Sequence record: NC_005066.1
Source of the DNA: Escherichia phage RB49
Direction: 5' to 3' (one strand)
DNA: 64,000 nt
Shown here in pieces: positions 58,746 to 63,968 of the stretch (positions within the stretch are counted from its first letter, which is position 1; each line of letters opens with the position of its first letter). Made by a program: the position numbers and the translations under genes. The notes beneath the pieces were generated by a model. The model worked only from the letters and a program-made list of their open reading frames with translations, ran no database searches and had not been told where the DNA came from.

Positions 58746-58895
58746 AAGGTAGCGAATCTTCCTTGTCTCCAACCTGCTAGCGGCCTAGCAAGTGAATGCT
58801 TTAGCGTACCGGATCGCCCACATACGCTGTAATAAATGCGGCTAGGTGACGTCCAAATCATTCTAACCGCGCTGTCTTTAGTTCACTATTATTTA
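58746..58895 (-). ncRNA. candidate small structured RNA (not a tRNA)
   Basis: ~150 nt ORF-poor segment between a TATAAATA-type late-promoter match (plus-strand tatttata near 58899-58906) and the terminator; local hairpins GGAAG..CTTCC and TGCTAG..CTAGCA. Confidence 0.2.
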
Positions 58896-59107
58896 TATCG
58901 CTTTCTCTCGCGACGTTTTTGGTCTTCTTCCTTGATAGAGTTAAATGCATCAAAAAGACACATGGCACTAATAATAAACATAACCGTATTTTCTACGATA
59001 TCCCACGGCTTCGCATCAGTACAGATCCCCCAAACGGTAAGAAATGCAAATAAGGCAGAAGAGATCACAAGCATGATACTTGCTAAGATATAAAAAGTCA
59101 TTTTCAT
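58889..59107 (-). CDS. small membrane protein
   Basis: 72 aa, two hydrophobic helices. Confidence 0.4.
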   Translation of the reverse strand: MKMTFYILASIMLVISSALFAFLTVWGICTDAKPWDIVENTVMFIISAMCLFDAFNSIKEEDQKRRERKRYK

Positions 59108-59298
59108 GGTTTTACCTCAATTCTTCGATATTCATCACACATCCACACAGTAAGCAAGAATCCCAGCACATAAGCAACAAAATACGTTAATGCTTCTTCT
59201 GGTTCGGTGCTATGCGCCATCATCAGACCAGCGAGAAAGGTCTTAACAATTACATTTAAAATAATTAGCCACGCAAATAATTTCATAGTTTGCCCCAT
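59104..59298 (-). CDS. small membrane protein
   Basis: 64 aa, hydrophobic. Confidence 0.4.
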   Translation of the reverse strand: MGQTMKLFAWLIILNVIVKTFLAGLMMAHSTEPEEALTYFVAYVLGFLLTVWMCDEYRRIEVKP

Positions 59299-59522
59299 TT
59301 CGGACGAGTATTTTCAAACTTATACATTACGTAACAATCTCGAATCATCCACGTAACAAGAGCACCAGTCAACACAGACAATACGCAGAAGAAGTAAAAC
59401 GGTCCGGTTGCATTATCAACATGAGCAAGCCAGGTAAAGAAAACACATGCTAAGAATGTAAAGAACATCATAAAGCACAAGAAAGCGAAATATTTTATAC
59501 TACTCATAGCGCCACCATACAA
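59283..59522 (-). CDS. small membrane protein
   Basis: 79 aa, hydrophobic. Confidence 0.4.
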   Translation of the reverse strand: MYGGAMSSIKYFAFLCFMMFFTFLACVFFTWLAHVDNATGPFYFFCVLSVLTGALVTWMIRDCYVMYKFENTRPKWGKL

Positions 59523-59610
59523 CAGATCATAAGAAACCCCAACGCAATAAGAATTGCGTCAAATTTAGTGAACTCCGGTCCACCTATCAACATCATTCGT
59601 TCTATTTCGT

Positions 59611-59853
59611 TCATAGCGTACAAAGCCATTTAAAAGCACCACATAAAGCGAGCAGAATACTAGGTATAAACGAGACCAAAACAAGTTTGCAAAAATCATC
59701 TAAGGTAACACCGGAATAGCTACCTACTGTAACAACACCGATCATCAGACACAGAAAGAAAACAAATGCAATCATAAACAAAGTATTGCTAAACAGTTTA
59801 GTGATCATTAGACACCCCACGACGATCAATTTCAAAAACTTTTTTATCATCAA
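59611..59853 (-). CDS. small membrane protein
   Basis: 80 aa, hydrophobic. Confidence 0.4.
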   Translation of the reverse strand: MMIKKFLKLIVVGCLMITKLFSNTLFMIAFVFFLCLMIGVVTVGSYSGVTLDDFCKLVLVSFIPSILLALCGAFKWLCTL

Positions 59854-60001
59854 CGAAGCATGTCACAACTGCCTCGTTGACTTCCGCAAATTGTTGTGTC
59901 ACCCACTTAAGGTCAGAGCGAAACAATGTTCTATTAATAACAAATGTTTTACCGCTCTTATCCTTACCCATAAATTTTGCTTTACCCATATCCAATTCCA
60001 T
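59798..60001 (-). CDS. hypothetical protein
   Basis: 67 aa ORF; start uncertain. Confidence 0.35.
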   Translation of the reverse strand: MELDMGKAKFMGKDKSGKTFVINRTLFRSDLKWVTQQFAEVNEAVVTCFVDDKKVFEIDRRGVSNDH

Positions 60002-60236: not shown

Positions 60237-60614
60237 TTAAGAATATTTTACTTCGTCTACAATGTCTTTCATGACATTGATTTCCATTCCGGTCAGAACA
60301 CGTTGGAACATGTGCTGCACATACGCTTTCAGGTATTCATTTGATGGCTTGCTATCGAAAGTCTTTTTAGTGTAGTAGTCATCACCGAAAGCTACTGTAA
60401 TTATATTTTCGTCGTCGTTCCAAGCGATATAAGCAAATTTGCCGTTATCCCAGAAGCGAGCACTAATTGCTACTTTTGTTGAATCGAATCCTACTTCGCT
60501 GTGAGATTCAAGAACTACTTGCGTGCCAGTTTCTTTATGAATGTAGTAGCGGGATACTAAGTCAAAGTTACGGGTGTAGTGACATTCGAATTTATCTTTA
60601 AACATCATCATCAT
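60237..60614 (-). CDS. hypothetical protein
   Basis: 125 aa from ATG 60612-60614 after cassette RBS. Confidence 0.45.
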   Translation of the reverse strand: MMMMFKDKFECHYTRNFDLVSRYYIHKETGTQVVLESHSEVGFDSTKVAISARFWDNGKFAYIAWNDDENIITVAFGDDYYTKKTFDSKPSNEYLKAYVQHMFQRVLTGMEINVMKDIVDEVKYS

Positions 60615-60687
60615 TTTGATTCTCCTAAGTGTGTTTCGTTTCGATATGTGCATTATGCTATAGTCGTTTATGGTTGTCAACAACTAA
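60615..60687 (-). promoter_or_regulatory. early promoter cassette (TTGACA-N17-CATAAT)
   Basis: conserved leader then TTAGGAGAATCAAA-ATG. Confidence 0.55.
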
Positions 60688-60719
60688 AAACAAAAAAACC
60701 CCGAAAAATTTTCGGGGTA
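60688..60719 (-). terminator. rho-independent terminator
   Basis: hairpin ACCCCGAAAA-TTTTTCGGGGT followed by U-run on minus strand. Confidence 0.6.
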
Positions 60720-60724
60720 TAAAA

Positions 60725-61195
60725 TTACAGTTTGGTCGTCCACTCCAGGTCTAGATCTTCGACATACTCATGAGATCGGACAATCTCTAAATCGAACTCT
60801 AGGTCAGTGCCAAATTTACGCGCACCAACATCATAAGAAAGCGTGATATGCGGTACATATTCAGGATAATCCCACGTCGCGCCTAAAGCAGTTCCGATAT
60901 CGTGTCTGAATTGCATGTAGTCGCTTTCAAATGCCAACACAAGCGCATTAGTACCGGATTGAGTTTCAAACACTTTCAGATGGCATAGAGAGCCTAAAAA
61001 CTTTTCACCCTCTTCTGGGATAAACGGAACATAGACACGAGAATATAAGATAGTGCTATGCAGTTTATCACGAGGAACGGCATTAGGCAGATCGTAGAAC
61101 TCCTGCAATTTTTCAATGCGGTCTAGTGTATCCTCAGTGAATTTAACCGCCGCATATGTACCTTTAACGGATTCTCGAAACGGGGTCATAATCAA
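60725..61195 (-). CDS. 57B: 2H phosphoesterase (LigT-like), candidate Acb1-type cyclic-nucleotide phosphodiesterase
   Basis: 156 aa; two H-x-[ST]-x motifs (HSTI, HITL) about 85 residues apart; ATGA-coupled downstream of 57A, the T4 57B position. Confidence 0.55.
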   Translation of the reverse strand: MIMTPFRESVKGTYAAVKFTEDTLDRIEKLQEFYDLPNAVPRDKLHSTILYSRVYVPFIPEEGEKFLGSLCHLKVFETQSGTNALVLAFESDYMQFRHDIGTALGATWDYPEYVPHITLSYDVGARKFGTDLEFDLEIVRSHEYVEDLDLEWTTKL

Positions 61196-61458
61196 GCCTC
61201 CGTGATCAGTTCTACTTCCTCTTTAGCGTCTTCCGCTGCTTCGTCTTTAGGGAGAAGTGCTTTCACTTCTTCGACAATAGCATCAAGGGAAACAGTGCCG
61301 TTTTCGTCTGGCTGAATACCCAGAATGCGTACAAGTTCCATCAATACACGCTCACGATCTTTCAGTTGGCCTTCTAAGAATGCGGCCTTTTCTTGAGTGT
61401 CAAACAGACGTACTTTCAGGACATTAATCATTTGTTCATGCTGATTGGACATATTCAC
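61192..61458 (-). CDS. 57A: tail-fibre assembly chaperone 57A-like coiled-coil protein
   Basis: 88 aa acidic coiled-coil protein immediately downstream of gene 1. Confidence 0.5.
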   Translation of the reverse strand: MNMSNQHEQMINVLKVRLFDTQEKAAFLEGQLKDRERVLMELVRILGIQPDENGTVSLDAIVEEVKALLPKDEAAEDAKEEVELITEA

Positions 61459-63221: not shown

Positions 63222-63968
63222 TTATGCATCCTTCCAAACTTTCCTTGCGTCGTATTTCTTGCCTTTTGACATAAACTGATATGTAGGCATATAGATAATA
63301 TTGCTCCAGTCTTTCGGGCTAATCTCAACAAGTTTTGTTTTAATGTGTCCCGGTAGATATGCTTTGATCATGTGGTCACTACCACGCATACCTTTTACAT
63401 CGCTCCATTTGATTTTTAAGCGTGTTTTATTGCTCAAGGTAGGAGTAGATGCATATTGCTTTAAAAGTGCCTCTAAAAACTGCTGACGGGCTTTAGGAGT
63501 TACATAGTGTAAGTTAAGACCCAGCATCACAGTATTACCCGCCTTTGTCTTAGAATCACCCAGACAAATGATCAGCGGGAAAACATCCCAATATGGCAAA
63601 GTGTCTTTATACTTAGCATCATACATAAAGGTATAGATTCGCCCTACTTGCGGTTTTACAATCTGGTGTCCCTTTATTCCCGCTTTTATTGTTTTAGTAA
63701 ACCACTCCTGTGATTTTTCTTTAGGACGACTCTTTGATACAGCACGCATAGACGCACGAAAATCATTAATCATCATCATTGCACGTTGCTGCTTATTGAG
63801 ACCCTTTGCTCCTTTCCCTTTTAGTTTTTCAACTTCTATTGCTGTTTTAATTTCGCTGGCATAACGAGACATACTTTTAGTGAAAGTCGCATAGGCTATT
63901 CCCTTAGAATCTGCAAATGCTTTAGCTGTCATGCCTTTGGCTTTTGCTTTCGCAAATTCTACACCCAA
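63222..63968 (-). CDS. 2: basic protein at the position of T4 gene 2 (DNA end protector)
   Basis: 248 aa lysine-rich ORF; ORF-track start is a non-ATG codon near the window edge; positional call only. Confidence 0.35.

Follow-up and report, generated by a model that had tools for sequence, protein, structure and literature searches.

The window analysed here is a 64,000-nucleotide stretch of the Escherichia phage RB49 genome (NC_005066.1; one strand, 5' to 3'). At its 61-kb region, the minus strand carries a gene that lies directly downstream of gene 57A and that we assign to acb1 (gene 57B). The genes and signals of the immediate locus are as follows.

60725..61189, minus strand: acb1 (gene 57B), 154 codons and a TAA stop, with the ATG start used in the Phi1 and G2494 annotation
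61197..61201, minus strand: putative Shine-Dalgarno sequence GGAGG, read from the sequence and located inside the 3' end of 57A
61192..61452, minus strand: gene 57A, tail-fibre assembly chaperone, 86 amino acids from its ATG (PF17594, phrog_1002, Phi1 annotation)
60698..60718, minus strand: stem-loop ACCCCGAAAA-TTT-TTCGGGGT with a T run after it, obtained in a terminator scan and presumed to function as a terminator

The longest uninterrupted open reading frame at this position (60725..61195, minus strand) encodes 156 amino acids when counted from a TTG codon at 61195. A preliminary description of this DNA had reported the 156-amino-acid frame without giving its strand. The frame is real, but its product is likely shorter, since an ATG at 61189-61187, two codons inside the TTG, yields a protein of 154 amino acids. 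The spacing between GGAGG and the ATG at 61189 is 7 nt, versus 1 nt for the TTG at 61195, and the Phi1 and vB_EcoM_G2494 orthologues are annotated from the same ATG. We therefore consider the ATG the likelier start, and the TTG was dropped. Residue numbers of the acb1 product given below refer to the 154-amino-acid protein.

Gene order and transcription signals

Gene 57A was recognized by a PF17594 (GP57) score of 27.4 bits, just above the 27-bit cut-off, by a match to phrog_1002 ("tail fiber chaperone", E=3.2e-26), and by a tblastn search with T4 57A (E=2e-7). As judged from Pfam and PHROGs matches and from the T4 and Phi1 annotation, the minus-strand genes here follow the T4 order: gp2-like, gp3, gp1 (dNMP kinase; PF21448, E=3.7e-68), 57A, and 57B. 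The placement of the gene immediately after 57A, in the slot that 57B occupies in T4, had been pointed out in the preliminary description and holds for the entire 2-3-1-57A-57B module, the synteny of which was observed directly. The ATGA coupling of 57A and 57B described at the same time is a property of T4, where the two genes overlap by ATGA; here, the TGA stop of 57A (61194-61192) is separated from the acb1 start by a 2-nt gap, the junction being TGA-TT-ATG-A. Despite the gap, close coupling of the two genes is plausible.

No terminator-like site was found when the coding strand was scanned from gene 1 to 57B, and no T4 late promoter (TATAAATA) is present within about 1.8 kb of acb1. The sigma-70-like sites upstream of acb1 are consensus matches only. 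Since a late promoter is lacking nearby and no terminator separates gene 1 from 57B, co-transcription with genes 1 and 57A is the simplest arrangement, and acb1 is probably expressed in this way. A G+C-rich stem-loop (ACCCCGAAAA/TTTTCGGGGT) begins 7 nt past the acb1 stop; the G2494 annotation lists the same stem-loop as a terminator, and it would end the 1-57A-57B transcription unit. Translation of acb1 would start from its own GGAGG/ATG, on a transcript ending at the hairpin past the acb1 stop.

The stem-loop is followed by a near-consensus sigma-70 promoter, TTGACA-17-CATAAT (60680-60652, minus strand), after which come an AGGAG Shine-Dalgarno sequence and the ATG, at 60611, of the next gene. 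By analogy, the stem-loop and early promoter (60652-60718) together resemble the "PeSL" (promoter-early/stem-loop) cassettes, which were described in RB49 and Phi1, and proposed to drive modular shuffling (PMC2839356). The PeSL-like element is located at the border between the conserved 2-3-1-57A-57B module and an ORFan-rich region.

The 57B product belongs to the Acb1 family

The 154-amino-acid protein matches the Pfam Acb1 profile PF23474 over profile positions 1-143 of 144 (E=1.5e-51; 174.3 bits versus a cut-off of 27 bits), and the same profile was present in all 64 homologues recovered from a large protein collection. In a sequence search of the PDB, the sole match was Acb1 of Erwinia phage FBB1 (7T26/7T27, E=1.9e-43). 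Pairwise alignment with T4 Acb1 had been proposed in the preliminary description as a check, a lack of significant similarity being evidence against the assignment. BLASTP against T4 57B/Acb1 (NP_049750.1), the enzyme on which the family was founded, revealed significant similarity that extends end to end, with 47% identity over 154 amino acids (E=3e-47). Homology to Acb1 is, then, an observation.

RB49 (AAQ15381.1), Phi1 (ABR24636.1), and JSE (ACL78078.1) encode a gp57B that is 100% identical to this protein, which an exact-sequence look-up found on 316 contigs. A 2.2-kb region around the gene is 98.5-98.9% identical at the nucleotide level to 57 phage records, all of them Krischvirus (RB49-like T4-type coliphages), including RB49, GEC-3S, JSE, Phi1, and kaaroe. 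The acb1 gene differs from that of Phi1 by 3 nucleotides and no amino acids, and from that of G2494 by 8 nucleotides and a single amino acid (D129N). Because the drift is almost all synonymous and leaves the protein nearly unchanged, these few differences suggest, on thin data, that acb1 is under purifying selection.

An AlphaFold2 model of the protein, built with 62 sequences, had a mean pLDDT of 91.5 and a pTM of 0.84, with disorder confined to five residues at the N-terminus and four at the C-terminus; the low pLDDT of the last four residues would be as expected for a flexible lid (see below). When the predicted structure was compared with the PDB using Foldseek, the top match was 7t26 (E=1.6e-16, target TM 0.97, rmsd 0.9 Å), followed by 7t27 (E about 1e-16, target TM 0.93, rmsd 2.0 Å), i.e., the apo and the 3'3'-cGAMP-containing structures of FBB1 Acb1. 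The next match was a phosphodiesterase of Burkholderia phage BCSR5 (E about 1e-7, TM 0.66-0.72), while cellular 2H enzymes, E. coli LigT among them, were far behind (TM about 0.5, rmsd 6-7 Å, 10-13% identity). The 2H phosphoesterase fold that had been postulated for this protein is therefore supported by the superposition of its AlphaFold2 model on FBB1 Acb1 (7T26).

Catalytic motifs and ligand-contact residues

Three segments of the coding sequence correspond to functional elements of Acb1.

61052..61060, minus strand: first catalytic motif, H44-S45-T46 (HSTI), equivalent to T4 H44/T46
60842..60850, minus strand: second catalytic motif, H114-I115-T116 (HITL), equivalent to T4 H113/T115
60728..60757, minus strand: C-terminal lid, residues 145-154 (DLDLEWTTKL), aligned with the FBB1/T4 lid, residues 145-152

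In T4 Acb1, metal-independent acid-base catalysis is carried out by the tetrad H44, T46, H113, and T115, bases of the ligand are stacked on by Y12, W74, F107, and W147, and a C-terminal lid (residues 145-152) shuts over the ligand (Hobbs et al. 2022; PMC9117128). E141 touches the N6 of adenine, a contact that explains why Acb1 substrates must contain one adenosine or more (PMC9117128). The corresponding HxT/HxT tetrad of the RB49 protein (H44, T46, H114, T116) is invariant across 62 homologues. All four base-stacking aromatics are present. Y12, equivalent to T4 Y12, is found in 61 of the 62 homologues. Position 74, which is always F or W in the family and is W in T4, is occupied by F, as in 41 of the homologues. 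Y108, the equivalent of T4 F107, is found in 15 of the 62 and is shared with FBB1. In the lid, alignment with T4 and FBB1 identifies W150 as the equivalent of T4 W147 (47/62), and E144 (56/62) is aligned with the adenine-reading E141. The loop leading from the second motif to the last strand has the length that is the mode among the 62 homologues. Hence, the catalytic and ligand-contact residues of Acb1 are all conserved or conservatively replaced, in states common in the family, and nothing about the RB49 copy is unusual for an Acb1.

The pair of H-x-[ST] motifs had been put forward earlier as the hallmark of the 2H/LigT phosphoesterase fold, with a spacing of about 85 residues. Both motifs exist, at H44 and H114, but the two histidines are 70 residues apart. 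Two H-x-[ST] motifs also occur in 13% of composition-matched shuffles of the acb1 protein. As stand-alone evidence the motif pair was rejected as too weak, and the case therefore rests on full-length homology.

Relation to characterized enzymes

T4 Acb1 and the RB49-type protein share the genomic slot after 2-3-1-57A, are of similar length (152 and 154 amino acids, respectively), and have identical HxT/HxT tetrads and identical residues at the E141 and W147 positions. The two proteins differ by one 1-amino-acid and one 2-amino-acid insertion in the RB49-type sequence and by the conservative replacements of T4 W74 and F107 with F74 and Y108, both as in FBB1. The gene surroundings also differ: T4 has ipI downstream of its overlapping 57A/57B pair, whereas the RB49-type phages have a Krischvirus-only ORFan downstream. 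Acb1 of FBB1, a phage of a different host genus, is 52-53% identical to the RB49-type protein and has the same F/Y combination at the two variable stacking positions; in the RB49-type protein, two inserted residues, E132-F133, lengthen the variable loop that precedes the last strand.

The BCSR5 enzyme, "2H PDE-9" (9Q2G/9Q2Y), likewise of viral origin, is a 2H phosphodiesterase with 3'3'-cGAMP among its substrates (bioRxiv 10.1101/2025.08.21.671373). In the structural alignment it is just 16-18% identical to the RB49-type protein. Its lid is N-terminal, unlike the C-terminal lid of Acb1, and it spares 2'3'-c-di-AMP (bioRxiv 10.1101/2025.08.21.671373). E. coli LigT and the cellular 2H enzymes (5LDI; PF02834, PF13563) have the same superfamily fold and paired H-x-T/S motifs, but neither the lid nor the stacking residues of Acb1; their substrates are RNA ends or 2',3'-cyclic phosphates and not cyclic oligonucleotide signals.

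Proposed function

The T4 orthologue was found by its activity, as a cGAMP-degrading factor (PMC9117128), which bears out the earlier statement that T4 57B has been characterized as Acb1. T4 Acb1 cleaves 3'3'-cGAMP, cUA, cAAA, and cAAG, 3' of adenosine and independently of metal, but not cGG or cA4; together with nine homologues (10 of 10), it cleaves 3'3'-cGAMP and cAAA (PMC9117128). On hosts carrying CBASS, T4 Δacb1 suffers a more than 300-fold loss of titre, while acb1 is dispensable in T4 in the absence of CBASS (PMC9117128). The lysate screen of 57 phages in the same work included "vB_EcoM-G2494 (Escherichia phage RB49)" (PMC9117128, Supplementary Table 1), the 57B protein of which differs from the RB49-type protein by D129N only.

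We conclude, with a probability of about 0.9, that T4 gene 57B has its Krischvirus orthologue in this gene, which encodes Acb1, an anti-CBASS phosphodiesterase, the function being assigned by homology. The earlier Acb1-like call is thus upheld by the Pfam profile, the PDB sequence match, the predicted structure, the contact residues, and synteny. The word "candidate" then used understates the present status of the gene, for the identical Krischvirus protein is already labelled Acb1 in UniRef (Q7Y455_BPRB4, "Anti-CBASS protein Acb1 n=16 Tax=Krischvirus").

From T4 and FBB1 Acb1, we infer the catalysis, substrate range, expression, and anti-CBASS phenotype of the Krischvirus orthologue, and the following mechanism is transferred from the same two enzymes. 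Acb1 would be produced by the phage during infection as a small, metal-independent 2H phosphodiesterase. Its U-shaped pocket would capture cyclic di- and trinucleotides with at least one adenosine (3'3'-cGAMP, cUA, cAAA, cAAG), which are made by host CBASS CD-NTases. The bases would be stacked by Y12, F74, Y108, and W150, the N6 of adenine would be read by E144, and the C-terminal lid would close onto the ligand. With the adenosine strained, H44/T46 and H114/T116 would catalyse attack of the 2'-OH on the 3'-5' bond, opening the ring to a linear product via a 2',3'-cyclic phosphate intermediate. The signal would thereby be removed before the effectors (e.g., Cap4, Cap5, CapV) fire, so that CBASS would be kept off and abortive infection averted.

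Alternative interpretations

A promiscuous Acb1 takes 2'3'-c-di-AMP and cA3 as further substrates and, as a result, triggers Panoptes guard systems; phages escape Panoptes by inactivating acb1, and Panoptes selects against promiscuous Acb1 (bioRxiv 10.1101/2025.08.21.671373). A "stealthier" Acb1 with a shifted range, which would, for example, leave intact the decoys by which Panoptes is armed (2'3'-c-di-AMP or cA3) and would still erase CBASS signals, can be envisaged for the Krischviruses, but we regard it as improbable. In its more general form, the proposal is that the protein is a true Acb1 whose substrate range is shifted relative to that of T4, either narrowed to avoid the 2'3'-c-di-AMP/cA3 decoys or aimed mainly at cA3 signalling instead of CBASS of the cGAMP type. 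Selection by Panoptes provides a motive for such a shift. Identity to characterized Acb1 enzymes is only 47-53%, and close structural relatives differ in this very respect: T4 Acb1 and PDE-9 behave very differently towards 2'3'-c-di-AMP, and specificity is set by the enzyme core (bioRxiv 10.1101/2025.08.21.671373). For these reasons, the substrate range may differ in detail from that of T4 Acb1. Since no Acb2 sponge is detectable in phages of the Krischvirus type (see below), selection on Acb1 may likewise differ from that in T4. Against a general shift stand the common family states of the contact residues F74, Y108, E144, and W150, the modal loop length, a model nearly superimposable on FBB1 Acb1, and the cleavage of 3'3'-cGAMP and cAAA by every one of the ten Acb1 homologues tested (PMC9117128). 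A shifted range is decidedly improbable on this evidence.

The assignment to Acb1 has also to be weighed against a generic LigT-type 2H enzyme, i.e., a 2'-5' RNA ligase or 2',3'-cyclic phosphodiesterase that would act in RNA or tRNA repair together with PseT and RNA ligase 1. Krischvirus encodes both pseT and rnlA, and phrog_755, to which the protein belongs, carries the label "RNA ligase", which has been copied into many GenBank records. Weak matches to PF13563 (2_5_RNA_ligase2, E=0.0012) and PF02834 (LigT_PEase, E=0.058) were indeed obtained, and LigT structures are among the fold-search matches of the AlphaFold2 model. The two profile scores are, however, under the curated cut-offs (19.4 versus 27 bits and 14.0 versus 23.3 bits, respectively), as compared to 174 bits for the Acb1 profile, and the structural match to LigT is poor, at the level of a superfamily, when set against the 0.9 Å superposition on Acb1. 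Features specific to Acb1 are all conserved, namely the stacking aromatics, the Glu that reads adenine, and the lid at the C-terminus; the T4 orthologue was identified by degradation of cGAMP (PMC9117128); and acb1 is not adjacent to pseT or rnlA. Membership in the LigT/RNA-ligase group was rejected as very unlikely, and the "RNA ligase" label of phrog_755 reflects superfamily membership only.

A gene in decay or no longer expressed, and without any present function, which the disrupted copies in some Krischviruses (split into 64 and 82 amino acids in Cognac, frameshifted at the C-terminus in vB_Eco_TB34) and the dispensability of acb1 for T4 in the absence of CBASS might bring to mind, has next to no probability, because the RB49 copy is intact, with a good Shine-Dalgarno sequence and ATG and all catalytic residues, and 316 contigs encode the identical protein, with nucleotide differences among relatives almost all synonymous. 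The frameshift in TB34 removes the lid Trp. The Cognac and TB34 alleles represent either natural inactivation, comparable to the acb1 nonsense allele of Bas43 that escapes Panoptes, or sequencing errors.

Acb1 in the absence of a detectable Acb2

T4 encodes Acb2 (Vs.4) in addition to Acb1. A tblastn search of the window and of positions 64000-163999 of Phi1 revealed, at BLAST-level sensitivity, no second 2H enzyme, no Acb2, and no IPI homologue (best E=3.1). Judging by these genomes, Acb1 may be all that Krischviruses have against CBASS, as their only cyclic-oligonucleotide countermeasure. Possession of Acb1 with apparently no Acb2 predicts resistance to many CBASS types and exposure to Panoptes-type guard systems. 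Krischviruses are therapeutic candidates.

The gene as such is already known: the structure, mechanism, and biology of the family have been published, and the identical protein, in GenBank ever since the RB49, Phi1, and JSE genomes were deposited, has been named Acb1. As Acb1 enzymes, the way they work, and their part in evading CBASS were already described in 2022, the RB49 copy has little discovery value. A search of a literature library for a published assay of a Krischvirus Acb1 found no paper naming both "Acb1" and "Krischvirus", and a broader search gave unrelated matches only. Many Krischvirus records still list the gene as "hypothetical protein" or, misleadingly, as "RNA ligase"; the proper annotation is anti-CBASS nuclease Acb1.

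Genes downstream of acb1 and elsewhere in the window

Two genes are located downstream of acb1, past the stem-loop.

60237-60611, minus strand: open reading frame of 124 amino acids, phrog_15253 (unknown function), in the slot of T4 ipI (anti-GmrSD)
59798-60001, minus strand: dmd homologue (PF17587, E=5e-15), two genes downstream of acb1

The 124-amino-acid frame is confined to the 57 Krischvirus records. It has no Pfam match above cut-off (there is a weak match to Gp30.7, E=0.009) and no significant match in the PDB. Since it sits between acb1 and dmd, we consider it a candidate anti-defence gene. The presence of dmd two genes downstream fits an anti-defence neighbourhood of acb1, like the ipI neighbour of T4 acb1 (PMC9117128). 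The Dmd protein is an antitoxin against RnlA/LsoA-type toxins, and T4 dmd is located elsewhere in its genome. Taken together, acb1, ORF125, ORF124, and dmd have the appearance of a small anti-defence cluster. Downstream of dmd, positions 58889-59853 (minus strand) contain a run of small hydrophobic, apparently membrane-spanning open reading frames (41-80 amino acids), which match Phi1 ORF118-122 and have no known function.

Two further genes of the window, both on the minus strand, were noted. A homologue of the T4 macro-domain (A1pp) protein Tk.4 is encoded at 50046-50495 (44% identity, E about 4e-39; PF01661, E=8.6e-7). At 63222-63968, residues 54-248 of the product are homologous to gp2 (DNA end protector, phrog_429), and the N-terminal stretch is HTH-like (phrog_32288). 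In Phi1, the counterpart of this gene is annotated as "ORF130.1 hypothetical" and lies beside a separate gp2. Either paralogy to gp2 or a different splitting of the gene may account for the frame at 63222-63968.
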